Positions 3,315 to 62,263 of a stretch of 64,000 bases of DNA are shown here, in pieces. The notes beneath the pieces are model-generated. The model searched no databases. It had not been told where the DNA came from and was given only the letters and a program-made list of their open reading frames with translations. Source of the DNA: an uncultured Gemmatimonadaceae bacterium (GTDB taxonomy: Bacteria > Gemmatimonadota > Gemmatimonadetes > Gemmatimonadales > Gemmatimonadaceae); NCBI GenBank assembly GCA_963829055.1, contig CAWHHI010000010.1, positions 128,001 through 192,000 on the forward strand, in the 5' to 3' direction. The stretch's first letter is position 1, and each line of letters opens with the position of its first letter. A program made the position numbers and the translations under genes.

Positions 3315-4586
3315 ATGCCTACGATTCGCGATTTCCTAATGCTCGCCGCCGCACTGGCCACCGTCACGTCCTCGAGCGCGGCGCAGCGCCGGCCCGCTGC
3401 CGCAGACACGGCGTCACTGCTGGCGCACGCGCGCCGACTGCACCGGGAAGTGCCGATGATCGATACACACAACGATCTCCCGGAGATGATTCATAGCGGT
3501 GCTCATGGTGATCTCGACGCGATGGACCCAGACAAGACGCTCCCGATCGACACGGACATTCCGCGACTCAAGAAAGGGCTCGTCGGCGCCCAGTTCTTCG
3601 CCGCGTACGTGCCTTCATCGTTCATCGAGAAGGGCGGCGCCAGGTTCGCGCTCGAGGAGATCGACATCATCGATCGCTTCACTAGGGCGTCGCCGTCGCT
3701 CGAAGCTGCCCGCACCGCGGACGACATCACCCGGATTCACGCCAAGGGGAAGATCGCGTCGCTGATCGGGATAGAGGGCGGGCAGGCGATCGAAAATTCG
3801 TTAGGCGCGCTCCGCCTGTTCTTTCGCCTCGGCGTGCGATACATGACACTGACTCACAGCAGCACGACGCTGTGGGCCGACGCCGCGACCGACGAACCGA
3901 AGCACGGAGGCCTCACCCGCTTCGGCGAAGAGGTCGTGCGCGAGATGAATCGCCTCGGGATGATGGTCGACATCTCGCACGTGTCCGACGGGACGATGGA
4001 CGACGTCCTTCGCATCAGCGAAGCGCCGGTGATCTTCAGTCATTCCTCCGCGCGCGCGCTCGCCGATCATTGCCGCAACGTTCCCGACAGCATTCTGACT
4101 CGGCTCGCGAAGAACGGCGGAGTCGTGATGGTGAACATCTATCCAGGGTTCATCAACGCAACCGCGGCGAAGCAGGCCGCCAACGTGCTGGACAAGGAAC
4201 GCGAGTTCAAAGCCATGTACCCGAACGATCCGGATAAATCGGCCAAGGCGTTCACGGATTTCTTGAGCACATTCAAAACCGAGACGGGCACGCTCGAGGA
4301 AGTCGCGGATCACATCGACTACATCCGGAAAGTCGCCGGCATCGACCACGTGGGGATTGGCGCCGATTTTGGCTCGCTCACGCAGCATCCGACCGGACTC
4401 GACGATGTGTCCCGGTACCCGTATCTTACCGCCGAGCTGATTCGCCGGGGCTATACGGATTCCGAGGTGAAAAAGGTCTTGGGGCTCAACATCCTCCGCG
4501 TGATGCGGGAGGTGGAGCGAGCAGCTGTGCGAATCCAGCGAACGCGCGGGCCGTCCACCGCGACGATCGAGGAGTTACGCCAGTGA
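3315..4586 (+). CDS. Membrane dipeptidase (peptidase M19)
   Basis: IDTHND, GIEGG, RYMTLTH, DISHVS, FSHSSA and HVGIGADF motifs; signal peptide. Confidence 0.92.
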   Translation: MPTIRDFLMLAAALATVTSSSAAQRRPAAADTASLLAHARRLHREVPMIDTHNDLPEMIHSGAHGDLDAMDPDKTLPIDTDIPRLKKGLVGAQFFAAYVPSSFIEKGGARFALEEIDIIDRFTRASPSLEAARTADDITRIHAKGKIASLIGIEGGQAIENSLGALRLFFRLGVRYMTLTHSSTTLWADAATDEPKHGGLTRFGEEVVREMNRLGMMVDISHVSDGTMDDVLRISEAPVIFSHSSARALADHCRNVPDSILTRLAKNGGVVMVNIYPGFINATAAKQAANVLDKEREFKAMYPNDPDKSAKAFTDFLSTFKTETGTLEEVADHIDYIRKVAGIDHVGIGADFGSLTQHPTGLDDVSRYPYLTAELIRRGYTDSEVKKVLGLNILRVMREVERAAVRIQRTRGPSTATIEELRQ

Positions 4587-4624
4587 GTTCCTATTAGGCC
4601 CGCACTCCAGCCTTCCACGTCAGG

Positions 4625-5974
4625 TCAGCGATTGACCGGGAATTCCTGTATCCAGTGGAATCCGCGCGATATCAGCAAGAACTTGTTCAGGTCGTGCTGC
4701 GTCATTGCCATGCGCACGCGCTTGCCGCCCAGGTCTCCCTCGAATGTGAGCTTCGTCGGTGACGGCCGCTCGTATGCCAGCACCGACTTCCATGTACTGT
4801 CGCTGCCTTTCTTCAGATCGATCGTGCGCTTCACGGTGTCGATCGTACCGACGAAGCGATCGAACGACTGATCCATCTTCTGGAACGAGATGCCGCCGTT
4901 CAATGACTGAAACACCGCGTGCCCATATCGCAGACTGTCGGTCGTGAGCGGTGGCCGAATCTCGCCGTTGATCGCCATCGAGTCTACGTCCCAGATGCCA
5001 TAGAGCGGGGACTTCGGCGCACCGGGGCCGTACTGCTTGTAGCCCTGCGTTCCGCCATACACCGCGAGGCCGAGCGCCCAGACGGTGAACACCAGCAGTG
5101 CGGCGATCCAGCGGCGGTGTGACGACGCGCTCGGACCATAACGCGGCGCCGACGCCGGCACGACCGGGCGATTCAGCACGAACCAGTTGATCAGGCGACG
5201 CGCATCTGGCGCGATGAGAAAAATCGACATCAGCACCAGATGAAACGCGAACAGCTTCACCGGTACATCGTACGTCATGTTCACCATGAACACGCCGAAC
5301 GTCACGCCGAACGTCACGAGTGCGCCGATCAACCCCGTCCACGGCAACAACAACAGCAGCCCACCGAGCACCTCGGCCGATCCGATGAAGCGTTCGTATC
5401 CTGGTGCGGCGCCGATCGAGTACCAGATCACTCCCATCGGCGAGAAGTCGCCGTATGGCTCGAGCAATCGACTGAGGAACACCGTCGGCATCTGCAGCGG
5501 AAATACTTTCGCGAAGCCGTACGAGAACATCGTTGTGCCAAGCGCGACTCGAAGAAACAGTCGGAACCATTTCTGGAGACGGGGATAGCTCGTCGTTCGG
5601 CGCGCGACGATCGACCAGACGACGGTGCCGAGGGCTGCCAGTAATACCAGGGTGAAGGCGTGCGTCCAGTCGAACAGCGTGTCGCCACTTCCGGTCGGAT
5701 GCACCGTGGGCGTTACACCGAGTACGTGATTGCCGACCCAGAGCACGAGAGGGCGTATCGGCAACTTTTCGGCAAGCACCGGCACGCGGAACTTCGGGAT
5801 CGGCAGCATGCCCGCAAGCATCTGCGTCGTGAGGACGTAGATGCCGAAGTAGAGGAAGCAGAACCGGAAGGCAATGCGGGCGGCGGGAGACCACGCGCCT
5901 TCGCTCTGTTGTTGCGGTTCTGGCACCACGCTCGACGGCGAGCGCTCCGTGATGTAGTCGGCGGTGAGAGTCAT
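4625..5974 (-). CDS. DoxX-like multi-pass membrane protein
   Basis: Several TM segments; YGFAKVFPLQMP..LLEPYGDFSPMG and NMTYDVPVKLF motifs. Confidence 0.75.
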   Translation of the reverse strand: MTLTADYITERSPSSVVPEPQQQSEGAWSPAARIAFRFCFLYFGIYVLTTQMLAGMLPIPKFRVPVLAEKLPIRPLVLWVGNHVLGVTPTVHPTGSGDTLFDWTHAFTLVLLAALGTVVWSIVARRTTSYPRLQKWFRLFLRVALGTTMFSYGFAKVFPLQMPTVFLSRLLEPYGDFSPMGVIWYSIGAAPGYERFIGSAEVLGGLLLLLPWTGLIGALVTFGVTFGVFMVNMTYDVPVKLFAFHLVLMSIFLIAPDARRLINWFVLNRPVVPASAPRYGPSASSHRRWIAALLVFTVWALGLAVYGGTQGYKQYGPGAPKSPLYGIWDVDSMAINGEIRPPLTTDSLRYGHAVFQSLNGGISFQKMDQSFDRFVGTIDTVKRTIDLKKGSDSTWKSVLAYERPSPTKLTFEGDLGGKRVRMAMTQHDLNKFLLISRGFHWIQEFPVNR

Positions 5975-6025
5975 GAGGTGTGACGATCGTGGAGGGTCCC
6001 GGTCCGCGTTCGAACCGACAACCGT

Positions 6026-6754: not shown

Positions 6755-6801
6755 TGTAGCCGGGTTTCCACCGCACGAGGACTGGAAGGGCGCTCGGTAG
6801 T

Positions 6802-9714: not shown

Positions 9715-9819
9715 GCGCCTCCTCCAGCGCCTAACGCCCGAGTGATGGCACTTGCGTGAGCGCCGGTGATCGAGGATAGAATGGCATCGCCCGGGAAGAC
9801 GTCGGCGCGCGGCACCCGA

Positions 9820-10053: not shown

Positions 10054-10147
10054 ACCTCGAGGCTGACGCCTAACGTTCATCGGCCTGTTCCGTCGTAACC
10101 CGACCACCACGGCAACCGCTGATGACGGGACTCAAAGCCGGGCAGCC

Positions 10148-10241: not shown

Positions 10242-10475
10242 GGCGCACTCCTCGCGCTCGAGGTGCGAATAACGCGGGTGCACGTGGCCGAAGCGGTACG
10301 ACTGCCCGGGCACCGGAATCGCATCGACCCCGATCGCTGGCGTCCGCTCATCATGAGCTTCCAGCAGTTCTACGGTCTCGGGGACCGCGTGCAGCCGTCG
10401 ACGCTCGCCGAGATTCCCGAGGAGGCGTATCGGCCGCGCGGGCCGGTCGTGCCTAACGTTACCCAGGCGGCGTGA
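10242..10475 (+). pseudogene. C-terminal remnant of a flavin reductase family (DIM6/NTAB-like) protein
   Basis: EVRITRVHV..NRIDPDRWRPLIMSFQQFYGLG..STLAEIPEEAYRP; N-terminus absent. Confidence 0.65.
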
Positions 10476-13042: not shown

Positions 13043-16000
13043 CTACTGCGAGCGTGGCGCAGCCGGCTCGTCCTCGTCCCACGCTTCCGCGAATGCTTCG
13101 GCGCCTAACGCCTCACGCAGCGAGTCGATCTCGCGCGCGTGAGGCGCGCGGCGTCGCGGTGGCAAAACGGCCCCGATCGCCGCCCGCTGCCGCTCCGCCG
13201 CACCGAAGAGCCGCGCTGCTGCCCGTGCATCTCCCTCATCACGCCGCACGCGTGCCAGCACATCGAGGCACTCGGGCAGAAGGAACCGGCTCCCGAGACG
13301 CCGCGTGATTGCGAACGCCTCATCGAGAGCGTCATGCGCCGCGGTCAACGCTCCCGCGCTGGCGCCGCGCGTCGGCCTGCCGGGTGAGGACCTGAGCGAG
13401 ACTCGCGACGTCGCCCCGACGGTGGAGCGCGACACTCTCCGCGTACAGCGGCTCCGCGCCAGCGGCATCGCCGGCGTCGCGGCGAAGGTCGCCGGCGGTC
13501 CGAAGGGCGAGTCCCGTCGCCCAGAGAAACCCATGCGCGCGGAGGGTTGGGAGCCAGGCGTCGATTGATGCCACAGCGTCGTCCGACCCGAGCGTCTCAT
13601 AAGCGATGACTACCGACGACAGGCTCGTGCTCGCGCGATGGATGACATCACCCGTCCGGTAGGCGGCATCGGTCCCGTCCTTCAGGATCGCACGGGCGCG
13701 GTCGACATTTCCCATCCACATCTCGAGCGCGGCGAGCGACGTCGACATGAACGCAACGCCACGCGGGTCGCCTAACGACCGATGAGCGCGGAACGCATAC
13801 GCGAGATGTTCGCGCGCCTGCGCCAACTCGCCCCGATGGTAAAAGCGCACCCAACCCAGATTGTTGTGCGCGAGCGCAATACCGCGCACGTCGCCGAAGC
13901 GCTCGTGAACCGCGAGCGCCTCCTCGGCGAGCGCTATCGCACGGGTTGGCTCGCCCGTGAGGTACATCGACCAGCTCAGGTGATTGAGCGTGGCCGCGAC
14001 GGCATGCTCGTCGCCCGCCTCACGGAAGAGCCGCTCCGCCTCCTCGAACAGCAATCCCGCCTCCACAGGAGCGCCCTGCATGTGCGTCATCACACCGTGC
14101 GACAGGATGAGCCGCGCGCGTGCCTCGTGGTTGCGTTCGGAACCGGCCGCACCGAGCACGCGATCGATCCGATTCCGTCCTTCGGTGAGGAACCCCCCGG
14201 TCCAGAAGCGGACGAGCGCCTCGGCCATCCGGATGGCTTCGTCGACGTGTCCGCGGTCGAGCGCATAGTCCAGCGCTGCGCGAAGGTTGTCGTGCTCACG
14301 CTCGAGTCGCTCGAACCACGTCCGCTGCTCGGGGCCACGGAGGTGGGGCGCGGCCTCCTCGGCCGTGGCGAGCATGGTCTGCAAGTGAGCGCGGCGCGCG
14401 CCGTCTTCTTCGCCGGCCTCGGCGAGCCGCTCGCGGGCGAAGCCGTGAATCGTCTCCAGCATCGCAAAGCGCGGCTCACCGTCCGGCTGCTCGTCCTGTC
14501 GCAGCAGGCTGTGGCTCACGAGCGCCGTCAGCGGCTCGAGCACGTCGCGCGGATCACCAAGCGATGCGGCCAGTGCCTCGGCGGCACCGACCGTGAAGCC
14601 GCCGGCGAAGACGGCGAGTCGGCGGAAAACGGTCTGCTCCGGGGCGCCGAGGAGTGCGTGACTCCACCCGATCACCTCGCGAAGGGTCCGGTGGCGCTCG
14701 GGAAGATCACGCGCGTCGCTCCGCAACACGTCGAGGCGCTGGTCGAGCCGCGCCAGCAACGCGCGCGGCGGAAGAAGGCGCGTGCGTGCCGCCGCGAGCT
14801 CGATCGCCAGCGGCATCCCATCGAGGCGCCGACAGATGCGGGCGACGGTCGACGCGTTCTCGATGCTGAGCGCGAAGTCGGGACGCACTGCCTGGGCGCG
14901 TTGGACGAACAGGCGGACTGCGTCGCCGGGGTCGGCGAGCCGCTCCGGCGTGGTCATCTCCTCGGGGGTAGCGACGAAGAGCGGTGGCACCGGGAGCTCG
15001 TGCTCGCCGCCAATGCCTAACGGGGCACGGCTCGTGGCGAGCACCGCGACGCCGTGGCAGTTGGCGAGCAGCTCGGCCACGAAGGGAGCTGCCTCGAGCA
15101 GGTGCTCGAAGTTGTCGAGGACGAGGAGCACGCGCCGCTCGCGCAGATGGCCGATGAGCCGCTCCCCGTGCGTGCCCCCTCCGGCGTCACGCAGACCGAG
15201 GGTCTGGGCGACGGTTTGCGGCACGAGCGCCGGGTCCGTGACGGGGACGAGCGAGACGAAGTGCACGCCGCCCTGAAAGCGTACTCATCTGGGCATGCAG
15301 CCGCGTGGAGCGCGAGGCGCGTCTTCCCCATCCCGCCCGGCCCGGTGAGCGTGACGAGGCGCTCGTGCTCGAGCAGCGCATCGATGCGCGCCACCTCGCG
15401 CTGACGCCCGATGAAGCTGGTGAGCGGCGCGGGGAGTATCGGTGCATCGCCCGCCAGCGCCGGCTCCGCCGTCGCGTCGGCGACCGTCTCCGCTCCCGCC
15501 TCCGATCTGCCAGCTGGTCGCGGGCTCCCGCCGATTTGCCGGAGCGCATCCCGCACCTCGGCGGCGCTCGCGTAGCGTTTGTCCAGGTTGCGGGCGAGCA
15601 GCCGATCGAGCAGCCGCCGCACGCCCGTCGGAACATCGTCAGGGAGCGGAGCCGAGGGCTTGTCCAGCACCGCGTGGAGGATGGCTGCCACGCTCTCGCC
15701 CGACCACGGGCGCTCGCTGGTGAGCATCTCGTGGAGCACGACCCCCAGCGCCCACAGGTCGGCCCGCGCGTCGACGGCATCGCCCCGCACCTGCTCCGGC
15801 GCCATGTAGTGCGGTGTCCCGAGCGCGTCACCGGTTCGCGTCCAGGCGTGGCCCGCTATCTTGGCGATCCCGAAGTCCACGATCTTGGCTACGCCGTTCG
15901 TGGTGATGAGGATGTTCTCGGGCTTGATGTCGCGGTGAACGATCCCTCGCTCGTGCGCCGCGCCGAGCCCTTCGGCGATCTGCTGCGCGATGCCTAACGC

Positions 16001-17295: not shown

Positions 17296-19385
17296 TCACT
17301 TGAGCTTGAAGCTCGCCTGGTGCGTCGTCCCGTCGGCGAGCGTGAGGTTCAGCATGCGGCACGTACCGGCCCACGCCTTGTCCGTCTTCCACGTGTAGCT
17401 GTACTGCTGCGTGCTCGCGTCGTACGCGAGACTGCTGTTGCCGGCGGTCACCGTCGCCTCGATGTCATCCTGCGGCGCGCTGGCGCTGCACGACACCTGC
17501 TGCGACGCGGGGGATCCGGCGGCGAAGATGGCGAGGCCTCGATTACCGCCGAGACCGAAGGTCACCTGCACGGCTGCCCCAGCCTTCACGACGTTCACCG
17601 TCGGCATGGGGTCGACCGGCTGCAGGAAGCCGGTGAAGGGGTACGCCACCGTATAGTTGGCGGCGACGGTGTTCGTGTTGCCGGCGTTGTCGGTGGCGGT
17701 GCAGCTGACCGACTTGCTTCCCACGGTGGTCGTGGTCGGCGTCCCGCAGCTCGCCGATGCGAGACCCGACCTCTGGTCTGTCGCGTTAGGCGTCGCGGTG
17801 GCGGTGCCGTTCAGGAGCACCGGATTGGGCGAGACCACGGGTGCGAGGGTGGGTACGGTACCGTCGCGCTTGATCGTGACGGTCTGGACGTTCGTGCCAC
17901 CGGCGCTGGTGGCGCTACAGGTCACGTCTTGACCCTGCGTGTCGGCGCTGATCGTCGTCGGCGCGCACGGTGCGGACGTGACGGCCGACTCGCCGTCGTT
18001 CACCGACCAGCGTCACCGTGACGTCGCTCGTGTACCAGCCGTTGCTGCCTAACGTGCCGTCGATGCTCGGCGTGATGACGGGCGGCGTGTCGTCGGACGA
18101 TGGCTCCGCCTCGTACGCGCCGATGTCGCAGCCGGCGCCCTGCGGCCGGGCGACGCCCCGCTGATCCTGTGTCGCGCAAACGCTCGCGATGCGCCGCGTC
18201 GATCGCCGCACTTCCCGCGCCGAGCGCCATGGTGGCCGTGGTGCCGGGCGCGTTGAGCGAGAGCGATCCGAGCTTCGGGTCACCGGTAGTGGCCGGCACG
18301 ATGCCCGCGCAGGCAGCCGCCGCCGGATACACCAGGTTACCGCCACCGTCGGCGATGGCTGGAGTCCCGAAGCTGCCGCAGTGTCCCTCCACTGTTGTTC
18401 GCCACGATCGTGTTCACCAGCGAATACGTTCGGCCTGTCGGTGAGCGAGTAGATGCCTCCGTACGTGCTCGCACTGTTCCCCGCGACCGTCACGTGGATG
18501 AACAGCGCCCGGAAGCCTCTTTGCCGAAGCCGCCGCCGATCGGCGCGCTGTTGCCCGTGACGGTGACGTTCATGAGCGACACGGTGCCGCCGTTCTGGAA
18601 GATCCCGCCACCAATGGAGCCGGCGGCGTTCCCCGAGATCGTGCTGTTGGTGACGGTCAGGTTGCCACCGGCGGCGTAGATGCCCCCACCCTTGCCGTTG
18701 GACCCGTTGGCCTGGTTGTCCGAGATCGTGCTGCTGTCGATGGTCATCTGCGCCGCGGTGTATGATGGCACCGCCGCCGCTGCTCGTCGTCGTGTTGCCC
18801 GAGAGGACGACGCCCTTCAACGTGATCCAGGTGTCGGTGAAGAAGCTGGCGATGCCTGCGCCGTTGCCGCCGCGGCCGCCGGAGATCGTGAGTCCCCTGA
18901 TTTCTACCGCGACGTTTCCGCGGATATCAATGATCCCGAACTCGGCCGCCGCATCAGCCGCCCGGCGCACGGTCAGGAGATTGGCGCCCGGACCGACGAT
19001 AGTCACACTCTTCTGGATCTGGAGCTGACCACCCAGCGTGATCACCTGAGGCCCGGCGGCGGTCAATGCCGGGTCGAACGTGATGGTAGCCCCAGCCATA
19101 CCGGGCGGCAAAATCGATCGCCTCGCGGAGCGTGCATCCGTTGCCCGTACCCGCATCGTCGCACGCGCCGTCACTCTGATCGGCGAGGCTGTTGACCACA
19201 GGACTAAAGCTTTCCTGGCTGAAGTGAGGAGCCCGAACGGCCGGTGCCACGATTGGATCACGGTCGCTGCAGCCCGCGAGCGTGGCGACCGCCAGCACGA
19301 CCGCGGCGTATCGGATGTAGGATGGCCTGGGGGCGAGCTCGGCAGAGCGACGAGCCGGCCAACCGGAGCGGCGATTCGGATTCAT
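17296..19385 (-). CDS. Secreted CSLREA / beta-helix / choice-of-anchor Q / PxKF-domain lipoprotein (several frameshifts)
   Basis: Lipobox LAGC; CTLREAI; repeated TNSTISGN..GGG; DQRGVARPQGAGCDIGAYE; C-terminal FTGFLQPVD..VKAGAAVQVTF. Spread over several ORFs. Confidence 0.8.
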
Positions 19386-19719: not shown

Positions 19720-22700
19720 CCGCTGCGGTACTCGGATGGGCTCACGCCGTGCGCCTCGCGGAACGACCGCGAGAAGTGCGACAGGCTCTGAAACCCCACC
19801 GCATACGCCACCTCGGCCACGTTGCCCGCGCCTTCCTTGAGAAGCTGCGCCGCGCGCTCGAGGCGGAGCCGCCGGATGAGGTCAGATGGAGTCTCGCCCA
19901 CCAGCTCACGCGTGCGACGGAACAGGTGTGATCGATCGAGAAAGACATGCTCCGCCAGCTCCGCGACGCCGAACTCCGACTCGGTCAGATGCGCCGCGAT
20001 CGTCGCGTGGAGCCTATCGACGAACGCCTGGTCCGCGGATCCCAACGCGGACTGTGGCGCGGGCGCCGGAAGCTCCACACCCTCGGCCGCAAACCGCTCG
20101 CGAAGGCGTCGCCGAGTCGTGATGAGGTTCTCCACGCGCGCGTCGAGCTCGCGCATCTCGAATGGCTTGGCCAGGTAGTCGTCCGCGCCGACCGCCGAGC
20201 CCGGTCGACCCGGTCGTCGGTCGAGGCCAACGCGGTCAGCAGGATGATCGGAATGAAGTCGGTTTCAGGATCGCTCTTGAGCGTCCGGCAGAGCGCGTTG
20301 CCGTCGATCCCCGGCATCATCACGTCGCTGATCACGAGATCGGGCAGGAGCGACCTGGCTCGCTCGATGCCGTCCCCGCCGTCGCCCGCCTCCACGATCC
20401 GATACCGCGACTCGAAGTGCGATCGGATGTACGCCCGCAGATCGGCGCTGTCGTCGACGATGAGCAGCGTCGTGACGTCGGCTGCGCCGTCAGCACCTCG
20501 CGTCTCGGTCTCGCCGTTGCCGGCGATGGCGTGATCGACTTCCAGCTCGTCCGTTCGTGCCAGCGAGCCTTCAGGTCCGGCGACGATCTGATCATCGCGC
20601 AGATGCGCGCGGCCTAACGGGAGCGTGACGGTGAACGTAGCGCCACCGGCACTCTCGACGGCGATGCTCCCGCCGTGCAGCTCGACCAGCTCTTTGGCGA
20701 GCGCGAGGCCGATGCCGGTGCCCGGCTGCGCGCGCGTGCTCGATTCGTCGACCTGATAGAACCGCTCGAAGACATGCGCCAGGTGCTCGGGCGGAATTCC
20801 TGGTCCGCTATCGATGACGTTGACCCGCGCGATGCTGTCTTCCGTCTCGACGCGCAGGGCGATGCGGCCGCCATCCGGCGTGAACTTGAAGGCGTTCGAG
20901 AGCAGGTTGCCTAACACCTTCTCGAGCGCGTCCGCGTCGAACCAGACATCGATCGGTTCGGGCGGCGCGACGACGTCGAAGTCGATGTGGTTCTGCGCCG
21001 CGATCTGTCCGAAGGCCGCGGCAACGCCGCGCGCAAACGTCACCAGGTCCTGTCGACGCGCGCGGAGCTTCATCTGCCCCGCCTCCAGCTTCGCGACGTC
21101 GAGAATCTGATTCACCAGCCGCAGGAGACGCCGCGAGTTGCGAAGCGCCATGTCGAGCTCCCTCGGCGGCTCGAGGATCGGCTGGTGCTCGACGCGCGCG
21201 CGAAGATCCTCGAGCGGGCCAATCGTCAGGGTCAGCGGCGTTCGGAACTCGTGACTGACGTTGGCGAAGAACCGGGACTTCGCCTGGTCGAGCTCCTTGA
21301 GCTGCTCGGCCTGCAGCTCGAGCTGATGTTGATTCTCGCGCAGCTCGCGCGTCCGCTCATCGACGAGTCGGCCGAGCTCCAGCGCACGTGCGCGAAGATT
21401 TCGAACACGCCATCCAACGAGGCCGGCCACGATGAGGCCGGCGGCCAGCAGCGACAGCAGTCGAAAGCTTCTGGTCTCCCACAGATGCGGCGCCAGATCG
21501 AGCTGGAGCGCCGCGCCCCGCTCGTTCCAGACGCCGTCGTTGTTGCTTGCCGCCACCCGGAACGTGTATCGGCCGGGCGGCACCTTCGTATAGAACGCCG
21601 TGCGACGGTTGCCGGCATCGACCCACGTCGCATCGTATGGCTCGAGTCGATAGCGGAAGCGCACGTTGGCTGGCGCCAGAAAGCTGAGCGCCGTGTACCG
21701 GATCTCGAGATCCCGTTGCGTCGTGCCTAACGATATGCCGTTTCGACCGGCCGGTACCGTCGTTCCGCCCGAGGTGACCTGCTCGACGACGACGTTAGGC
21801 GGAATGGGGTTCCGCCGGATCCGTGCCGGATCGACGACCGCGACACCAGCCTGCGTCGCGAACCAGAGTCGCCCGTCGCGCGATCGGATGGCGGCCGGCT
21901 GCGAGCCACCGTTCGCCTCGCGATTCCGCAGTCCATCCCGCTCGGTGTACGCCGTCGAGTTGATCGTCGGCCGCCGACCCGCCGCAAACTCGAGCAGCTC
22001 GCGACGGTCCACCCAGAAGATCCCGCGGTTGCCGCTCATCCAGAGGCGATCGGCGTCGTCCTCGAGAATGGTGTGGATCACCTCATCGAAGAGCCCGTCG
22101 CGCGCACGCAGCGTGATGATTCGACCGCGCTCGCTTCCCTTCTTCCCAGTCGCGTGGATCGAGGCGCGCGAGCCCGCGACCTTCGGTGCCGACCCAGAGC
22201 CAACCGTCGCGGTCCACGTGGAGCGACCGAACACGATCGAACGGAAGTCCGTCGGCCGTCGTGATCGAGCGGAAGCGCCCGTCCTTGTATCGCAGCAGAC
22301 CGTCGGCGGCAGTTGCCATCCAGAGAGCGCCGTCGCGAGAGCGCTCGAAGGCTCGCACGACTGGTTGCCGGTCGCCGGTGCCGACGCGCGGCGTCGTCCA
22401 CCGATCTCCGTCGAGCCGAAGCAGCCCCACGTCCGATCCAAACCAGAGCACGCCAGTCGAGTCCTCATACATCGCGTGAGCCTGGGCGCGGCGAGCGACG
22501 TCATTCGGAGCGAGCGCGCATTGCATCGTGGTCGGCATGCACTCCAACAGTCCGATGGCGCCGATCCACAGACGCCCGGTGCGGTCTTCCTTGAACGAGA
22601 GCACGACACTCGAGTTCCCAACCGGCGCGACCACGCGCGTGATGCGATCTCCGTCGATGCGGCTCATCCCGCCGTTGAGCGTGCCGATCCACATGGTGCC

Positions 22701-33592: not shown

Positions 33593-33649
33593 GGAGGAGA
33601 GGAAAAGAGGCGATCGTTAGGCGACAAACAGCGTGAACGGCGCAGAACA

Positions 33650-35072: not shown

Positions 35073-35370
35073 GACGACCACCACGGAACCGCGGGGGAGA
35101 AACCGGCGTAGCCCTTCGAGGACAAGCTACTCTAAGGTAGGAGCAGGGACGCGCCGCGTGGAGGGGGACTATCTACCCGACGGTCTGCCTTCCCCGCTGG
35201 GCATGAACGCCGCCGGCCTCCTCGGGACGCTGGGCGTAGAGTACGCTCGGGCCTGCTCCACCGGTGCTCGCGCAGCTCGAATACCGCACGATGCTCGGTC
35301 TCGCCACAGTACGGTAGACATACACGATCGCGTGTCGCGCCTAACGCCTGATGTTCGGTTGCGGCGTCCT

Positions 35371-36639: not shown

Positions 36640-37850
36640 ATGTCCAATCGGCGTACCTTCCTGAAGCAGACCGCCGCGATCGGCGGGGCCCTCAGCCTTT
36701 CACCGCTCGCAAAGCTCCCGCTCGAGGCGGCCGTGCCACTCACGCGGCCGAATCCCGGACGCGCACCCGCGCCGCTCAACATTCTCATCCTCGGCGGCAC
36801 CGGCTTCACCGGCCCGGAGCAGGTCGAGTACGCGATCGCGCGCGGCCATCGCGTGACACTCTTCAATCGCGGCAAGACGCGGCCCGGCATGTTCAAGGGA
36901 AAGGTCGCCGAAGAGCTCATCGGTGACCTCAACGGCGACACGAGCGCGCTGAAAGGAAAGAAGTTCGACGTCGTGATCGACAATCCGACGACGCTTCCCT
37001 TCTGGGTGAAGAACGCCGCGCAGTACCTCAAGGGGAATACCAAGCACTACATCTTCATCTCGACGACGTCGGTCTACGCCGATCAGAGCGAGATCGGCAT
37101 CAACGAGAACAGTCCGACGGTGCCGATGCCCGCCGGCCTCGATCCGTATCAGCCCGACCAGCGCAACACGGCGCAGCTCGCGGCGTCGAGTAACCCGGGG
37201 AACTACGGCGCGTTCAAGGCGCGCGCCGAAGTGGAAGTGCAGAATCAGTATCCGGGCATCAACACGATCATCCGGCCGTGCCTCATCGTCGGGCCGCTCG
37301 ATCGCACCGACCGTTTCACGTACTGGCCGGCGCGTATCGACAAGGGCGGCGAAGTGCTCGCGCCCGACAAGCCGGACGATCCGTGTCAGTTCATCGACTC
37401 ACGCGATCTCGCCGAGTTCATGATCCGCATGGCGGAGATGCGCGAATTCGGAACGTACAACGCGATCGGTCCCGAGAAGCCGATGACGATCGCCGAGATG
37501 TTGTACGGCGTCAAAGCGCGTCACCACGGCCGGCGCACAGTTCACGTGGGTGCCGTGGGAGTTCCTGCAGGCGCAGGGCGTCCGCCCGTGGACGCAGCAT
37601 GACGGTCTGGCAGCCGCCGTACGGGCGCACCGCGGGCTACCAGCGGCGCAGCGCGGCGAAGGCACTCGCGAAAGGCCTAACGTTCCGCCCGCTCGCCGTC
37701 ACGGCGAAAGACACGCTCGACTGGCACAAGACGCGTCCCGCAGAAGAGCAGGCCGCGACGCTCGAAGGCAAGATCAACGGCCTGTCGATGAAACGAGAAG
37801 CCGAGGTGCTCGCGGCGTGGAAAGAGGAGGTGGCGAAGCAGAGCAAGTGA
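36640..37850 (+). CDS. NAD-dependent epimerase/dehydratase (isoflavone-reductase-like) with Tat signal, frameshifted near 37520-37600
   Basis: NRRTFLK; ILILGGTGFTG; YGAFKA; RPCLIVGP.DRTDRFTYWP; tail GLTFRPLAVTAKDTLDW. Confidence 0.85.
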
Positions 37851-45388: not shown

Positions 45389-46531
45389 TCACCGGTTGGA
45401 CACCTTCAGCGGGAACCGCTTGAGGGCGGGGCCGAGCTTCTGGTTGCAGGCGGCACCGGCCAGCTCTGGCTCCCACTCCACCGTCGTGGTCGCGGCGAGC
45501 TCGGCGCCCAAGCCAGCGCGCGCGACCTTGAGCGGTGTGCGCACGCCGTTCTGCACGAGCGTCGCCGCCGTGGTGTAGACGCCGTGCGGCAGATCGTTGA
45601 TCGCCAGGTTCGAGCCGAAGCGGACGACGCGCGTGATCGCGCTCCCCGCGCTCCCATCCACGAGCGGTCCCTGGGGCGTGAACTGCACCTCGATCTCATC
45701 GCCGGTGCGGATCCCTGAGACGTCCCACGTATCCACGTCCACACCGGCGCCGAAGACGTTGGCGGAGGCATCGGGGATGCGGCCGGTGAGCTGCCAGCGG
45801 AAGTCGCGCACCACGGTGCTGCCGGGCACGAACGCATCGTAGTCGGCGTCGTTAGGCATCCCCAGGCGCACGCAGTACGACTGGCCGCGGTAGGCAACCT
45901 CGGTCCACGCCTTGACCTGGTGCGACAGGCCCGCGGGGAGCCCGCGCACGACGTAGCGGCCGTCGGCGCCGGTGCGCGTCGCCACGACGTTCGGATTGAA
46001 CACCATCTTGACCTCGACCAGCGCGTTCGCGATCGGCTGGCCGCGGGCGTCGCGCGCGACGCCGGTGACGACGCCGGCTTCGGACTGCGGTGGCGGGGCC
46101 GCCGCGGCAACGCGCGCGGTGAACGTGGTGGTGACGTTCGGTACGCCGGCAGCGGTGCCGATCAGCGTGATCGGGTAGTCGCCCGCGGGCACGCTCGCGG
46201 CGGCCTGCACGCTCAGCGTCGCCGAGGCGGCAGTCACCGGATCGTTAGGCGCGGTGACGGCCAGCCCTGCGGGCGCGCCCGCGGCGACGAGCGTCACCGC
46301 ACCGGTGAAGTTGGTACGAGCCAGCGAGACGGTCGCGGTCCCGCGCTGCCCCTGCTCCACGGTGATGGCCGCGGGAGTGACGGTCAGCCCGAGCGACGGA
46401 GCCGGGTCCGCTGACGGGGGTGGCGTTGGTACGGTAGCGGCTTCGCCGTTGGTGCACGCACCGGCGAGGGTGATCATGAGGAGCGCGATGTATGGGGCGC
46501 CGGAGGCGCGCGAGAAACGACTGGCAGGCAT
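45389..46531 (-). CDS. Lipoprotein with Ig-like and carboxypeptidase-regulatory-like domains
   Basis: Lipobox LAGAC; VTGVARDARGQPIANA.V..TRTGADGRY; RDFRWQLTG. Confidence 0.72.
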   Translation of the reverse strand: MPASRFSRASGAPYIALLMITLAGACTNGEAATVPTPPPSADPAPSLGLTVTPAAITVEQGQRGTATVSLARTNFTGAVTLVAAGAPAGLAVTAPNDPVTAASATLSVQAAASVPAGDYPITLIGTAAGVPNVTTTFTARVAAAAPPPQSEAGVVTGVARDARGQPIANALVEVKMVFNPNVVATRTGADGRYVVRGLPAGLSHQVKAWTEVAYRGQSYCVRLGMPNDADYDAFVPGSTVVRDFRWQLTGRIPDASANVFGAGVDVDTWDVSGIRTGDEIEVQFTPQGPLVDGSAGSAITRVVRFGSNLAINDLPHGVYTTAATLVQNGVRTPLKVARAGLGAELAATTTVEWEPELAGAACNQKLGPALKRFPLKVSNR

Positions 46532-46829
46532 TGGAGTGTGTGGTGGATTGCGGAGGTTGGAGAGGCCGCCGCGGCGGCTGCGTACCACGTGCGCCGAGTG
46601 TACGGGCTGCCGGCGTGGCGCGCGTGGGAAGTTCGACCCGGGTCAAACTTCCCATGTACCGGCGCTGACGAGGCCGGCCTGCCCGAACGGGCGCACGATC
46701 ATCTCCGATCTGCCTGGCGACCTCTACGCATTGCCGATCGCCGGTAGCAATTCGTCGTTAGGCTGCACCGGTGCGAACTTGCCGTGCAGCAGCCGCTCGC
46801 ACTCTGACCGGACCGGAGTCCAGCATCTA

Positions 46830-50151: not shown

Positions 50152-50250
50152 GCCTAACGCCCCAGTTACGCCGCACAGGGGTCATACACGAGTGATGCGA
50201 AAGGCATCACAATGCAATGAACCCTTTGTCGGCGTCAGCGCTCGTTAGGC
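50152..50250 (-). mobile_element. Integron attC site (99 bp)
   Basis: Plus (bottom) strand: GCCTAAC-GCCCCA-GTTACGC-CG...T-CG-GCGT[C]AGC-GCTC-GTTAGGC, with R and L boxes and two extrahelical bases. Confidence 0.85.
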
Positions 50251-50788: not shown

Positions 50789-50807
50789 GCGTACTCCGGA
50801 TGTGGTG

Positions 50808-50903
50808 GCCTAACGCTGGAGTTCAGCTGCAAGCGCGCAGGGTTGGAGCCATGCTGCCGAGAGGAGCGTCCGCGCGCTCGTCAGCTGCATCGATTCGTTA
50901 GCG
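50808..50903 (-). mobile_element. Integron attC site (96 bp)
   Basis: GCCTAAC-GCTGGA-GTTCAGC-TG-CAAGCGCGC...GCGCGCTCG-T-CA-GCTG[C]ATC-GATTC-GTTAGCG. Confidence 0.88.
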
Positions 50904-50940
50904 CGCTCGACGATGTTTGTCATTCACCCGCGGCGGTCGC

Positions 50941-51594: not shown

Positions 51595-51721
51595 CGCTAA
51601 CGCCAAGTTCAGCTGCGGAGCGCCCCGGTTGCGGGCGTCGCAGACTCGAATCTCCTACCAAGGCGACCGGCGCACAACCTGATGCCGGTCGCTCCGTCAG
51701 AATGCAACGCACGCGTTAGGC
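51595..51721 (-). mobile_element. Integron attC site (127 bp)
   Basis: CGCTAAC-GCCAA-GTTCAGC-TG-CGGAGCG..CCGG...CCGG..CGCTCCG-T-CA-GAATG[C]AAC-GCACGC-GTTAGGC. Confidence 0.82.
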
Positions 51722-53309: not shown

Positions 53310-54100
53310 CTTCCATGCGCGTGTTGATCGTGGACGACGAGCCGCTCGCGAGACAGCGGCTGCGTCACCTCCTCGACGAGATCCCGGGAACGGAGGTCGT
53401 CGGCGAATGTGGCGACGGCACCGACGCGGCGAAGGCGATCGTCGACCTCGCACCCGACGTCGTCCTCCTCGACGTGCAGATGCGCGAGATGGGAGGCTTC
53501 GCACTCGTCGAGACAATCGGCGCGAACCACATGCCGCCCGTGGTCTTCGTTACCGCGCACGACCAGTTCGCGCTTCGAGCATTCGACGTCAGCGCCGTCG
53601 ACTACCTCCTCAAGCCCGTGCAGACGCCGCAGCTCGCGCGCGCGCTGCAACGCGCCGCCGACCGGCGACGGGCGACGGATCCGGCGCTGTACGGCAACCT
53701 GCGAGCGCTGCTGGACACGGTGCGAACGATGCTCGGCGACGCCGCCGCGCCGCCAACGGTAGCGGCGCCCGCGCCAGAGCGTCCGCCGGTGCAGCCCGGC
53801 ATCGTCACGTTCTCCGACGTCGTCGTCGACCTGCGCGCCCACACCGTGCATCGCAACGGCGTCGCCGTCGCCCTGTCTCCCCGCGGCTATGCGCTCCTCG
53901 CGACGCTAGTCGTTAGGCCGGACGAGGTCATCACGCGCGAGCAGCTGCTGCGCGAGATCTGGGGGTATTCCTCGGACGTGATGTCACGCACCGTCGACAT
54001 GCACATCATGGAGCTTCGCCGGAAGCTCGAAGTCGACCCGGCGAACCCGCGCCACTTTCACACCGTGCGGAAGACCGGGTATCGCTTCACGCGAGGATAG
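53306..54100 (+). CDS. Response regulator: LytTR-type receiver with OmpR-type winged-helix output domain
   Basis: ATGA overlap with the kinase stop; VLIVDDEPLAR..FVTAHDQFALRAFDVSAVDYLLKP, then LSPRGYALL..TREQLLREIWG..SRTVDMHIMELRRKLE..TVRKTGYRF. Confidence 0.88.
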   Translation: MTSMRVLIVDDEPLARQRLRHLLDEIPGTEVVGECGDGTDAAKAIVDLAPDVVLLDVQMREMGGFALVETIGANHMPPVVFVTAHDQFALRAFDVSAVDYLLKPVQTPQLARALQRAADRRRATDPALYGNLRALLDTVRTMLGDAAAPPTVAAPAPERPPVQPGIVTFSDVVVDLRAHTVHRNGVAVALSPRGYALLATLVVRPDEVITREQLLREIWGYSSDVMSRTVDMHIMELRRKLEVDPANPRHFHTVRKTGYRFTRG

Positions 54101-54239: not shown

Positions 54240-55234
54240 ATGGTCAACCGTCGCGAATTCCTCGGCCTCACGCTCGGCGCCGGCGCTACGCTGGCGCTCA
54301 CGCCGGAGCTGCTCCGCGCATTCAGACACTCGAGCAGCCGAGTGGAAAGCTCATTCAGCGGGCCATCCCGTCTACCGGCGAGATGCTCCCGGCCGTCGGA
54401 CTCTCGTTCAGCAACCACCCGGGGTGCGCGGATCACGCCGCGCTCACGGAGGTCCTGAAGACGTTTGCCGACAGCGGCGGCAGAGTCTTCGACGCGATGC
54501 ACGTCAACCCGGCGTCGGAGCAGTTCCACATCACGGCTGCCACGGAGCTCGGGATTCAGAACAAGCTCTTCTGGTCGACGCGAGGTACTCCCGGCAACGC
54601 CGCGCCGCAGCCCGGCGCCGCCTTCGTGAACGGGCACATCGATTCGTTGTTGGCGAGGATCAAGGCGCCGAGGATCGACCTGGTCATGCTGCCCGTGGCG
54701 GCCGATCCGACGAACCTCGCCGCCCTGAAGGAGGAGAAGAAGGCGGGGCGCGTTCGGTACATCGGCGTGCAGACGATTTCGGTGAACGTCCAGTCTGCCC
54801 AGCTCGAGGCACTCATGCGCAACGAGCCGATCGACTTCATCGGCGTCGACTACGACGTGAGCAATCGTCGCGTCGAGGACACCATCCTGCCGCTCGCCCA
54901 GGAGCGGAAGATCGGTGTGATGGCGTTCTTCCCCTTCAACAACGCTCGAGGACTCAGTTGCACTGGTGGCACGAGCCTCTTCTCGCGCGTCGCCAACAGG
55001 CCCGTTCCGGAGTGGGCCGCCGATTTCGACGCCAGGACCTGGGCGCAGTTCTTCCTCAAGTACGTCATCAGCCACCCGGCAGTCACCGTGGCGCGTACGG
55101 GGACGACCAAGGCGACGCACATGGTCGACAACCTCGGCGGCGGCATCGGCCGGCTGCCTAACGGCGCGATGCGGAAGCGGATGGCGGAGTTCATCGATGC
55201 ACTCCCACCCGCGCCTGCGCCGCAGCGTGGGTAA
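54240..55234 (+). CDS. Aldo/keto reductase with Tat signal (frameshift near 54330)
   Basis: MVNRREFLG; RAIPSTGEMLPAVGL; KKAGRVRYIG; ILPLAQERKIGV; WAQFFLKYVISHPAVT. Confidence 0.85.
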
Positions 55235-55333
55235 GCACGTCCGCCACCGCTGGAACGAAAGTAGCGCCGCGCCTAACGGGCCATCCGACGTACGTGGTGG
55301 ATCCGGCATCACTCGATACATGGGGAGGATAGT

Positions 55334-58834: not shown

Positions 58835-58861
58835 GCTCGTCAGGTTCAGCGCACGTTAGGC
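58835..58861 (-). mobile_element. attC half-site (R''/L'' arm only)
   Basis: GCTCG-T-CA-GGTT[C]AGC-GCAC-GTTAGGC matches the right arms of the intact sites; no partner arm upstream. Confidence 0.65.
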
Positions 58862-59089: not shown

Positions 59090-60100
59090 TTAAAAAGGAC
59101 AGGGGCGGAAGCGGAATCCCGTTCGCGCCCACACCGGCAAGTCCTCCAGCGTCAGCTCGCTGAATGTCCCGCCGTTGTTGTGCCAGTGGCTCATGATTCG
59201 ATCCTCCGCCGCGCCGTTCACCCAACGCCGCCCCAGCGAGATCGCGACATGCTCGTTTTGGTCCCAGTACATCACGTCTCCCTCTTGTGGCACCAGGCCG
59301 GGGTGCGGAGCGAATGGGACGCTGTCATAGAAGCCTAACGCGTGGCTGAGGGCTCGGCCGTAATGCTCTTCGCCGTTACCGCCACGAAGGTGATTGAACT
59401 CATTCACGAACGCCGCCCGCCGGTGCGTGAATCTGAGCCAGTCCAGGGTCACGAGGTTCGCCCGGTAGGCCGAGTACAACACGGCTTCCCAACAGTTCAT
59501 GTGGGCCCGGGGGCTCGGGATGGGGCCGTTGCGGTTTATCCACTCCGCGAAGTGGTTTCGCCGCATTCCCGCGCCGTGATTCCAAAGTTGTTTCGGCTGG
59601 TACATGGGCCCGGCGTTAGGCACCAGCGCCAGTAGTCCCTGGTTGACGGGCCCCGACGGGACCCAGGTGAACCACCCGTTCATTAGACGGGCAGTCGCGG
59701 CGAGTTGCACCCCGCGCCCCGTTGCTCGCTCCGTGCGCAGCCGGCGTAGTCGCTGGACATGCGCGAGGTACACATTGGGCGCGGGCGGCGGTGGGGGGGC
59801 CGCGGGCGGTCCCGGGAGCTGGAGTGCCAAGGCCTGGGCTCGGGACGCGGCTTGGTTGTCGATCAAGGACCAGGCGTCGCAACGGTTGATGAACGCATTG
59901 CGGACCTGATCGGGTACCACCGCCACCATCGGCAGATCGTTGGCGAGCTCCGACAACACGGCATCGCGGAAGAGGTCTTCGCTGTCGGCGTCGTTATTGA
60001 CGTAGATCTGGACCAGCTGGAGGACTAGCGGCGCGTGTGCAACGAGGTTGGGACGGCCCACTCCAGTGAAAATTTGCTGGACCTGCAACAAGGTCAGCAT
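59090..60100 (-). CDS. Hypothetical protein with possible papain-like/NlpC-P60-type Cys-His domain
   Basis: GAGAGG RBS; Pro-rich linker; MNCWEAVLYSAY and GDVMYW..EHVAISLG. Confidence 0.7.
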   Translation of the reverse strand: MLTLLQVQQIFTGVGRPNLVAHAPLVLQLVQIYVNNDADSEDLFRDAVLSELANDLPMVAVVPDQVRNAFINRCDAWSLIDNQAASRAQALALQLPGPPAAPPPPPAPNVYLAHVQRLRRLRTERATGRGVQLAATARLMNGWFTWVPSGPVNQGLLALVPNAGPMYQPKQLWNHGAGMRRNHFAEWINRNGPIPSPRAHMNCWEAVLYSAYRANLVTLDWLRFTHRRAAFVNEFNHLRGGNGEEHYGRALSHALGFYDSVPFAPHPGLVPQEGDVMYWDQNEHVAISLGRRWVNGAAEDRIMSHWHNNGGTFSELTLEDLPVWARTGFRFRPCPF

Positions 60101-60320
60101 GCCGGTGGCCTCTCAGTGGTGCGCGAGTAGAATGTCGAGGGGAACGTCGAGCTTTTGTTCCTAGATCCCCTGAAATTGTGCGTCACTGCCTCGTGCAGCA
60201 ATGGCTCCCCATCATCGGGCATGAACCGGGCGGTCGAACTCCACGACGTTGATCGCCTAACGCGTCAACCAGCGAGCACCGGGGCCGAGATCCGTATGAC
60301 AGTCTGAAATGTGTGTTGCC

Positions 60321-60778: not shown

Positions 60779-60838
60779 GCCTAACGCCTGAGTCAAGCCG
60801 AGTCGCGAAGCGGCTTCGGCTCGAATGAATTGCTAGGC
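60779..60838 (-). mobile_element. Integron attC site (60 bp, aadA-like short type)
   Basis: GCCTAAC-GCCTGA-GTCAAGC-CG-AGTCGC-GAA-GCGGCT-T-CG-GCTC[G]AAT-GAATT-GCTAGGC. Confidence 0.9.
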
Positions 60839-61011: not shown

Positions 61012-61061
61012 CGCAGGAGATATGATCGCACGCTTGTTTCAGCACGCGGAGTACCGAGGCG

Positions 61062-61157
61062 GCCTAACGCCTTAGCTAAGCTGCAAGCGGATCAAATAAA
61101 ACGCGAGCGTAGCGAGCTTCATTAAATGGCTTGTCAGCTTCAGCGTGTGTTTTAGGT
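61062..61157 (-). mobile_element. Integron attC site (about 96 bp)
   Basis: GCCTAAC-GCCTTA-GCTAAGC-TG-CAAGC...GCTTG-T-CA-GCTT[C]AGC-GTGTGT-TTTAGGT. Confidence 0.85.
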
Positions 61158-61202
61158 GGCGCTCCGACACCGCGAAACCTTCATGGTTTGATCGGAACGC
61201 AG

Positions 61203-62138
61203 TTACTTGGAATGCCCAATGAGTCGCCTCACCTCGTCGGCAACGATCTCGGGAATTGCTTGCTCCATGAAGTGCGGTACGTCGCTCATGACGAGAAGCC
61301 GTCCAGGGGAAAAGCGCTCGACGAAGGCGCGCTGCTCAGCCCGGATAGCAATTGCCATCTTCTCAACAGGCCACGAAGGGTCAAGGTCGATCCGCGTGGT
61401 CGCAATGTAGGTGACCGGAATGTTGACCTTTCGGCGCCGCATCGCGTGTGCTTGCCTGTAAGTCGTAAGCTGATCAAACTGCTCGACGTTCCGTTTCCAG
61501 TCGTTCGGTTGCATGCGCGCTTCGCTTGGCAGAAATCGCTCGTCAATCGTACTGACATCATCGGGCAGACTTGCGTCGAGCAGGACCATTCCGTTGACGT
61601 CATCAGGGTAAGTGGCGGCGTACATTACAGCGATGAGGCCGCCGAAGGAGGCGCCAAGGAGGATGAACGGACCGCGAATGTGCGCAGCCGCGAGCAGCCT
61701 ACGAAGATCCGTCACGGCGTCCTTACCAGTAAGCGGACCCCGAACCTTGTCACTAAATCCGACATTAGCGCGGTCGTAGATGCACACACGAGCTCGATCG
61801 CGCAGATAGCTCGGAATTAGCCCTGAGTTTTGACTGCTACCGCGGGTCACGATGATCCCGTGCATGTAGACGACTGTGTGTGGCCCGCCGCCCTCACATC
61901 TGAGATACAACTTGTGGCCACCGACATCGAACAGTCCTTCTACAACAGGCAGGACCATCGTCGACTGCGGCCGCTCTCCAGCAGCCTGGCGCGACACGGT
62001 TCCGGATCCCCCGCGTTGAGTGACGGTTGTAACGGATGAGCAACCGCCGAGCATGACGGTCAACGCCGCGACTGTGAAGAGTGTCTCACGGACAAAACTC
62101 TCACGCATACTGCACATGACCTCTGCGACTCTAGACAT
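61203..62138 (-). CDS. Gene cassette: alpha/beta hydrolase lipoprotein
   Basis: Lipobox LGGC; FDVGGHKLYLRCEG, YDRANVGFS, GASFGG and PHFM; start uncertain. Confidence 0.85.
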   Translation of the reverse strand: MSRVAEVMCSMRESFVRETLFTVAALTVMLGGCSSVTTVTQRGGSGTVSRQAAGERPQSTMVLPVVEGLFDVGGHKLYLRCEGGGPHTVVYMHGIIVTRGSSQNSGLIPSYLRDRARVCIYDRANVGFSDKVRGPLTGKDAVTDLRRLLAAAHIRGPFILLGASFGGLIAVMYAATYPDDVNGMVLLDASLPDDVSTIDERFLPSEARMQPNDWKRNVEQFDQLTTYRQAHAMRRRKVNIPVTYIATTRIDLDPSWPVEKMAIAIRAEQRAFVERFSPGRLLVMSDVPHFMEQAIPEIVADEVRRLIGHSK

Positions 62139-62167
62139 TCAGCCACTTGATTCGTAGGTGAAATGCC

Positions 62168-62263
62168 GCCTAACGCCCCAGTTCAGCTGCGTCGGCGCGG
62201 GCTGCAGCTGTGACTGCGGTTGCAGCGGTGCGCGCCCACGTCAGCTGCAACGATCCGTTGTGC
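62168..62263 (-). mobile_element. Integron attC site (96 bp)
   Basis: GCCTAAC-GCCCCA-GTTCAGC-TG-CGT.GGCGCG...CGCGCC.ACG-T-CA-GCTG[C]AAC-GATCC-GTTGTGC. Confidence 0.9.

Follow-up and report, generated by a model that had tools for sequence, protein, structure and literature searches.

Highly repeated short DNA words that mark a bacterium's own DNA are understood experimentally, at the strength described below, in only two families of animal-associated bacteria: the Neisseriaceae, with their DNA uptake sequences (DUS) and the receptor ComP, and the Pasteurellaceae, with their uptake signal sequences (USS). According to passages of Bakkali (2007, PMC1939737), the abundance of USS and DUS has the same shape as that reported here and their one-off forms are over-represented as a class, while a DUS spacing of about 1.1-1.5 kb is given in part of Treangen (2008, PMC2397512). 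HIP1 (GCGATCGC) of cyanobacteria is described in a section of PMC5861425 as an octamer that is 15- to 300-fold enriched and conserved beyond codon needs, and a 2026 preprint (10.64898/2026.06.24.733823) argues that it is an uptake signal; HIP1 had gone unexplained for 30 years. Chi and the KOPS/AIMS words (FtsK orienting polar sequences and architecture imparting sequences) are also over-represented 8-mers, read by a DNA motor and, as a passage of PMC3384302 states, skewed with replication. Finally, the inverse core and core of attC, the recombination sites of integron cassettes, follow the consensus RYYYAAC/GTTRRRY as given in a passage of PMC3053210. Here we describe an octamer, GCCTAACG, found repeatedly in a window of 64 kb (the whole stretch analysed, G000:C10:128001-192000) from the Gemmatimonadaceae genome G000 (7.78 Mb, 66.7% G+C, 20 contigs). 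Like DUS and USS, it is present as thousands of exact, short, non-palindromic copies on both strands, about one per 1-1.5 kb, with a sharp drop to one-off forms; it lies in genes, in several frames and against codon preference, is conserved between orthologues, missing from putative acquired islands, divided into lineage dialects and evenly spaced (the last not in the genomes G041 and G042). Unlike them, it is another word, belongs to other phyla (probably Gemmatimonadota, and Verrucomicrobiota) and is known here from sequence alone. It also lacks terminator-type inverted pairs, most of its one-off neighbours are under-represented, phages carry it at host density, and the same word, equal to the attC core, is present in two phyla. 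HIP1 is a palindrome recognised by methylases, with a periodicity of tens of kb reported, whereas GCCTAACG is not its own reverse complement and no methylase is tied to it.

Results

A sequence-only reading of the window had listed 45 copies of the word, and all 45 coordinates proved exact (28 read GCCTAACG and 17 read CGTTAGGC on the plus strand). Its base-composition estimate of 2-3 copies was of the right order, as 100 dinucleotide-preserving shuffles of the window contained 1.19 copies on average and 4 at the most, and 0/100 reached 45. Enrichment is not limited to the window: the genome has 5004 copies (2457 and 2547 per strand), one per 1.53 kb, on all 20 contigs, with 0.48-0.80 copies per kb on every contig, and GCCTAACG is its top-ranked 8-mer against a second-order Markov model. 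Markov models of orders 0-3 predict 297, 131, 102 and 258 copies, and 69 are expected when the words are masked from the background, so that the enrichment over the second-order model is 49-fold, or 72-fold with the masked background. Since independently assembled genomes of two phyla contain it too, the word is not a polishing artefact, which the same reading had raised as a concern. The 5004 copies have no common flanks, just weakly biased adjacent bases (C/T before, C/A after), and the octamer itself is therefore the repeated unit.

The 24 one-off neighbours of the word have 8184 copies in G000 in total, together 1.38 times the expected number. Enriched among them are variants with A (24.8x), C (13.5x) or T (3.7x) at position 1, with A (21.5x), T (4.5x) or C (3.1x) at position 8, with A at position 3 (10x) and with G at position 5 (2.2x). 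These tolerated variants describe a reader preference of about RC[C/A]TAACR.

Coding sequences (CDS) were counted with our own crude gene caller, which gave 7259 CDS covering 78% of the genome. The number of window copies in CDS had been put at about 29, and 29/45 lie inside these calls; about two thirds of all G000 copies are in CDS, at a density of 0.55 per kb compared with 0.98 per kb outside. All four codon phases noted in the window are used genome-wide (xCG-TTA-GGC 1318 copies, CCT-AAC 949, CTA-ACG 616, GTT-AGG 478), and in the two stop-giving phases there is no copy. The rare codons pointed out earlier are indeed concentrated in the word, which holds 1322 of the 2974 TTA codons (44.5%), 622 of 4393 CTA and 482 of 6922 AGG. 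The codon-preserving null model proposed with the first description gave the same answer: 10 within-gene synonymous shuffles leave 143-190 copies (mean 164), as against 3387 copies in the actual CDS. The suggestion of a lineage-specific iterated signal thus holds, and the signal acts on DNA rather than on protein.

Where the protein permits the word through synonymous codons (an eligible site), the fraction in word state is 75% for Pro-Asn (961/1285), where one change is needed, 44% for xCG-Leu-GGC (1321/2989) and 43% for Leu-Thr (620/1443), with two changes each, and 16% for Val-Arg (482/2947), with three. The conversion of eligible synonymous sites (16-75%) is thus graded by the mutational distance from the preferred codons, a finding that is new here. 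In an rpoC alignment the word stands where word-poor relatives carry the preferred-codon spelling GCCGAGCG (CTC -> TTA), and in the xCG-Leu-GGC context CTG and TTG are depleted while CTC persists. The graded saturation and the loss of CTG and TTG with CTC retained are consistent with point mutations that arose step by step and were fixed under a strong bias, and they argue against template copying. For new DUS, too, the alternative allele is the preferred-codon spelling, according to part of Treangen (2008, PMC2397512). In alignments with congeners at 78-88% identity, 14/20 words were unchanged, compared with 33.4% of 23,195 other 8-mers.

The copies in the window and the attC sites among them are as follows; every copy is an exact match, and minus-strand copies read CGTTAGGC on the plus strand.

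3799..3806, minus, word copy
9729..9736, plus, word copy, GCCTAACG
10068..10075, plus, word copy
10451..10458, plus, word copy
13103..13110, plus, word copy retained in the G002 and G001 orthologues
13770..13777, plus, word copy; tolerated variant ACCTAACG in orthologues
15015..15022, plus, word copy retained in orthologues
15992..15999, plus, word copy retained in orthologues
17784..17791, minus, word copy
18047..18054, plus, word copy
20612..20619, plus, word copy
21725..21732, plus, word copy; inverted pair with 21793, hairpin not significant (z -0.9 to -1.2)
21793..21800, minus, word copy; inverted-pair partner of 21725
24263..24270, plus, word copy in an acyl-CoA synthetase-like gene; CCCCAACA/CTCCAACA in homologues
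24505..24512, minus, word copy
25502..25509, plus, word copy common to 2/5 homologues
27561..27568, plus, word copy retained in the G005 and G002 orthologues
28405..28412, minus, word copy retained in 1/2 orthologues
28863..28870, minus, word copy retained in orthologues
31882..31889, minus, word copy
32017..32024, minus, word copy
33615..33622, minus, word copy
34239..34246, plus, word copy
34569..34576, plus, word copy
35339..35346, plus, word copy
36152..36159, plus, word copy
37675..37682, plus, word copy
42477..42484, plus, word copy
45850..45857, minus, word copy
46243..46250, minus, word copy
46756..46763, minus, word copy
50152..50250, plus, canonical attC with the word on both arms (50152 plus, 50243 minus); hairpin z -5.4/-6.7, nhmmer hit
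50808..50917, plus, attC-like site by attC profile, word only at the 5' (R'') end
51714..51721, minus, word copy
53911..53918, minus, word copy
55156..55163, plus, word copy
55271..55278, plus, word copy
58854..58861, minus, word copy
59333..59340, plus, word copy
59614..59621, minus, word copy
60255..60262, plus, word copy
60779..60786, plus, word copy, possibly a decayed attC
61062..61170, plus, attC-like site by attC profile, word at the 5' end
62168..62277, plus, attC-like site by attC profile, word at the 5' end

The acyl-CoA synthetase-like gene (24042-25673) belongs to a multi-copy family with several homologues per congener at 77-82% DNA identity, and some members carry the word while others lack it at the same site.

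Among the 41 relatives searched (the counts include the unpublished genome G013), the word is hyper-abundant in 7/7 genomes of the genus, with 1242-2569 copies per strand, and in G014 of another genus (3190/3170 per strand). It is moderately raised in G040, G020, G010, G019, G036 and G038, and most other relatives are at background, with 1-42 copies per strand, many of them forming regularly spaced runs on one strand that resemble cassette arrays. A scan of 185,579 species genomes for a three-copy pattern returned many Gemmatimonadaceae, some metagenome-assembled genomes of Chthoniobacterales (Verrucomicrobiota) and short-cassette arrays of many phyla. Whole-genome counts in Chthoniobacterales were 2282/2280 in the 3.2 Mb of G041, 2584/2602 in G042 and 708/757 in G050; seven tested genomes of other groups were at background. 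Of 70 further genomes sampled evenly from the order of G041, four were enriched (G085, G121, G110 and G098) and 66 were not, which brings the word-rich Chthoniobacterales genomes to seven in total. There the word is the 9-mer GCCTAACGA: in the dialect of G041, 95% of the copies are followed by A, and A at position 3 is not tolerated. Dialect words of the word-poor relatives were sought in 7-kb rpoC loci of 30 genomes. The candidates GCTGAACG and TGAAGTCA failed genome-wide and CCGCCTAC was a local tandem repeat, while TCCGTCGA, GATTCCA and CGGGATCC were further candidates of this screen.

Copies in G000 are spaced more evenly than random: the mean gap is 1529 bp, and gaps shorter than 200 bp number 215, compared with 611 under a Poisson expectation. 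The share of eligible sites in word state depends on the distance to the next copy, being 6.8% below 50 bp (n=354), 22% at 100-200 bp, 43% at 300-500 bp and about 50% at 0.5-2 kb, while for sites more than 4 kb from another copy it is 10%, which marks foreign islands. Direct pairs with a gap of 20-50 number 14 (49.9 expected) and inverted pairs 5 and 4 (24.9 expected for each). Direct pairs at this gap are also depleted in G005 (16 vs ~54), G014 (25 vs ~123) and G050 (5 vs ~14), but not in G041 (131 vs ~101) and G042 (104 vs ~97), the expectations for these five genomes being our own arithmetic from rounded genome sizes. Gemmatimonadaceae copies thus repel one another within about 300 bp and Chthoniobacterales copies do not, a contrast that is new here. 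G042 has the integrase gene intI and in G041 none was found, and neither is depleted; the contrast in interference is therefore not due to the integrase. No replication-strand skew was detected in G000 (correlation with GC skew -0.16; permutation p 0.10-0.98 on 7 large contigs), and cumulative strand excursions on 7 large G041 contigs did not exceed those of permutations.

Three stretches of 31-50 kb in G000 are free of the word (C6:5440-55037, C11:1-46789 and C6:591808-623330). All are situated at contig ends, and the G+C content of the last is 72.8%. Recent acquisition may account for these islands, as may mis-binning or chimerism. The word-free C19:1-11556 has 56.5% G+C, and its genes share 59-73% identity with genes of G041, a Chthoniobacterales genome; either a recent transfer from Verrucomicrobiota or a chimeric assembly may explain it.

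The word contains the letters of the integron core, GCCTAAC/GTTAGGC, and equals this core plus one base. Eight of the window copies had been assigned to attC sites; five could be found there, two of them in one canonical attC and one each in three attC-like sites, and the rest could not. Only 2/45 window words start an imperfect inverted repeat of 57-141 bp that folds. An attC profile detected 16 sites in G000, as against 5004 words: 12 beside the sole full intI (C20:208041-208958) and 4 in the window. The attC sites of G000 begin with the exact octamer, yet they account for less than 1% of the copies, and more than 99% lack a hairpin partner and are situated in ordinary genes. The word is likewise distributed independently of intI, which is present in 29/41 relatives irrespective of enrichment and was not found in the word-rich G002, G004, G041 and G050. 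The tolerated profile differs from RYYYAAC in accepting A at position 3 but neither T there or at position 2 nor C at position 4. The match to the attC core is nevertheless too exact to dismiss, the chance of this 7-mer in a random 8-mer being about 2 in 10,000 by our own arithmetic; the specificity of the reader may have been shaped by the cassette pool, or the reverse.

Regions 50152-51000 and 60700-62300 of the window are attC clusters with no integrase nearby (cassettes of the CALIN type, clusters of attC sites lacking an integrase). Elsewhere in G000, C20:119-208 kb holds the full intI together with a run of attC-like sites.

A scan of viral contigs for a two-copy pattern gave 119 stretches, of which 80 were analysed. 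Twelve viral loci of at least 10 kb have at least 0.4 copies per kb, some of them being one-stranded runs. Phage DNA is clearly among them. The L263 record (a fragment of 16,975 bp, with scaffold, portal and terminase genes) has 31 copies (22/9), G051 (L207; 44 kb, rated 98% complete, no tyrosine integrase found) has 29 (8/21) and a 49-kb provirus has 18. Unlike on the chromosomes, the words of G051 and the L263 record are strand-biased; one of the two phages favours the strand antisense to its genes, the other the sense strand.

A reader or determinant of the word was sought among the proteins of G000 and its relatives. RecC (PF04257) was found in 1/41 relatives, neither in G000 nor in any word-rich one (AddAB was not searched), and a crude motif scan against 77.5% of G041 found no DNA methyltransferase common to G000 and G041. 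Canonical Vsr (PF03852), present in 4/41 relatives and in no word-rich one, is rejected as the determinant, and a Chi or KOPS role is rejected by the lack of replication-strand skew and of RecC. By blastp of the 7259 G000 CDS against six-frame open reading frames (ORFs) from the same part of G041, 2380 CDS had a match; the 150 most similar pairs were housekeeping or metabolic by Pfam, with no shared DNA-binding candidate among them. A candidate at C19:8758-9423, 67% identical to G041, was rejected because it is present only in G000 of the 41 relatives.

More attention was drawn by a strongly conserved family of about 205 amino acids (G000 C5:243031-243672, L325:14969-15586, L456:1501-2130) with the invariant motifs FVGRGDMSRGG and LLGSIATGKY. 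It has more than 8000 database relatives, all annotated as hypothetical; the G000 member has no sequence match in Pfam, NCBIfam, PADLOC or PDB, and its AlphaFold2 model (predicted local distance difference test score 75) has no fold match, with a best Foldseek E-value of 0.03 and a best VIA Z of 5.3, which is background. In G041 and G042 the gene is directly followed by that of an ATP-dependent DNA ligase, and because of this neighbour in two Chthoniobacterales genomes the family is probably a DNA-repair enzyme. In a set of 112 genomes the family followed the word. It is encoded in 13/14 strongly enriched genomes and in 12/100 others: in 7/7 genomes of the genus, in G014 and G019, in 5/5 word-rich genomes of 71 Chthoniobacterales and in G042, and also in 10 word-poor genomes. 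As determinant of the word it is rejected, since 80 metagenome contigs encoding it hold 32 words in 453 kb, and 38/47 of their loci of at least 3 kb are word-free, including those of proteins 73-76% identical to that of G041. Its association with the word in genomes is best explained by kinship. Copies in G014 (C291:1833-2401), G022, G027 and G019 are split in two or have an in-frame stop, and these may be decaying genes or assembly errors.

Discussion

Our preferred explanation, held tentatively and with the prospect that it may well prove wrong, is that GCCTAACG is a double-stranded self tag of the DUS/USS kind, kept by an uptake or recombination drive. Of the three mechanisms offered by the sequence-only reading, the uptake sequence is the best fit, a protein-binding or methylation-driven motif is a possible alternative, and dispersed landing sites for an integrase are unsupported. 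On the preferred explanation, a DNA-handling machine of the cell would prefer word-bearing DNA, most likely the DNA-uptake or transformation apparatus, the core parts of which are present. Word-bearing alleles would replace word-free ones, and point mutations towards the word would become fixed wherever the protein allows, via rare synonymous codons, until most eligible sites were converted. The benefit would act on a DNA segment, and in Gemmatimonadaceae a further copy less than about 300 bp away would add progressively less to it. We infer both the uptake or recombination preference as the force and the place of the reader within the competence machinery.

Several observations weigh against this explanation. 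ComEC (40/41 relatives) and PilO (39/41), both including G000, are equally common in word-poor relatives and therefore not discriminating, and the 8 pilin-like ORFs of G000 and the 7 of G041 resemble one another in nothing but the N-terminal helix, with no shared pilin domain found (the ComP_DUS family was not searched). G000 has no excess of close inverted pairs of the Neisseria terminator kind. In G041, where 47-83% of eligible sites are converted, there is no interference, 62-69% being in word state at every distance below 1 kb, so that the Chthoniobacterales pattern looks like site-by-site conversion. In G000, 16 of the 24 one-off neighbours are under-represented (0.32-0.91x) and 8 are enriched (2.2-24.8x). 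Phage genomes have a host-like density of the word, and this richness contrasts with DUS, which are described as absent from recently acquired genes in a passage of Treangen (2008, PMC2397512). The explanation must also treat the match to the attC core as a coincidence or make a further assumption. Three of these observations, namely the phage genomes, the saturation of Chthoniobacterales sites independently of one another and the under-representation of most neighbours, argue for a force that acts within the cell.

Such a force could be an intracellular writer, i.e. a sequence-specific system of repair, mismatch correction or linked to methylation, which resolves near-cognate mismatches towards the word on any replicating DNA, as in very-short-patch repair or as has been proposed for HIP1. 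It would account for phages with host-like density and for the saturation of G041 and G042, where copies do not interfere. The mild under-representation of most one-off neighbours is what its substrates would show, and a writer also fits the stepwise, transition-favoured route at xCG-Leu-GGC sites, where CTG and TTG are depleted and CTC remains. In very-short-patch repair by Dcm/Vsr the bias likewise raises one word and lowers its neighbours (CCWGG/CTWGG counts), but the effect is far larger here: the known effects of this repair are few-fold, compared with 50-70-fold in our case, and this counts against a writer. The distribution of canonical Vsr and the lack of a methyltransferase common to G000 and G041 in the crude motif scan of 77.5% of G041 do so as well, and the short-range interference in G000, G005 and G014 would not be expected from independent writing of single sites. 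We regard a writer as unlikely, though still as an explanation to be reckoned with. It is also conceivable, but distinctly less probable, that the word is an in-cell self tag read by a nuclease, a defence system or a recombination machine in a Chi-like but orientation-blind manner, such that word-bearing DNA is spared or repaired better and both host and phages are selected for it. In its favour are the word-rich phages with a strand bias unlike that of the chromosomes (G051 8/21, the L263 record 22/9), the even spacing and the islands without the word. All known Chi and KOPS words are, however, strongly skewed to the leading strand, unlike this word; RecC was not found in G000 or its word-rich relatives, word-free islands of 31-50 kb persist in the chromosome, and no PADLOC family is tied to the word (a single candidate protein was scanned).

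Even spacing and the zone of about 300 bp without a second copy in Gemmatimonadaceae would also suit binding sites of a nucleoid or chromosome-organising protein, selected for regular spacing. Such spacing is missing in Chthoniobacterales, the presence of the exact word in phages and across phyla would require transfer of the protein, for which the 150 pairs offered no shared DNA-binding candidate, and we know of no nucleoid protein with thousands of exact 8-bp sites; we consider this explanation very unlikely. The least probable of all, in our judgement hardly credible, is that the words are dispersed secondary integrase sites or raw material for new attC sites. In its favour the word is the attC core plus one base, the attC sites of G000 start with it and cassette arrays of many phyla carry it. 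Against it, 16 attC-like sites stand beside 5004 words, intI is present regardless of enrichment and was not found in four word-rich genomes, and the tolerated variants are unlike RYYYAAC. For these reasons the integrase landing sites proposed at first are not upheld and the integron integrase is rejected as the reader. Close pairs are moreover depleted in both orientations without relation to intI (G042 has intI and no depletion), and how an integrase could write its own site into genes is not explained by any known mechanism. A different link to integrons, of small but not negligible probability, is that an uptake or DNA-sparing machine of these soil lineages became tuned to the R-box of attC, so that cassette DNA of any phylum would count as "self" and the genome-wide word would be a by-product, or, conversely, that word-saturated genomes, with core sites flanking almost every gene, could be where new cassettes arise.

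No published description was found (supplements excluded) of the word, of uptake sequences in these phyla or of an over-represented core site, and a search with the word alone led to primers only. The phenomenon known from the two animal-associated families recurs here in soil phyla that are abundant and mostly uncultured, with one word common to phyla and phages. If the word marks DNA for exchange, it would define gene-trading partners in soil, and a simple 8-mer would be a handle for finding the reader and for tracing the donors, and with them the origin, of integron cassettes. Under either version of the possible link to integrons, the word would tie the integron gene pool of different phyla to transformation-type exchange. 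Repulsion in one phylum and saturation in the other make the rival mechanisms testable.

Minor observations

Two other words were noted in passing. GGATGACA/TGTCATCC is the top 8-mer of G000 under a maximal-order Markov model (337 copies, 167 expected), and GGGATGAC is present in 7 dispersed copies with differing flanks on the metagenome contigs L490 and L492 (12-17 kb; about 0.3 expected); each may be another short signal. About 130 bp of the window (19589-19719) have dozens of matches in congeners (G003, G004 and others), at 75-91% identity and on both strands, and this segment looks like a small dispersed repeat or a family of miniature inverted-repeat transposable elements (MITE) of the genus.

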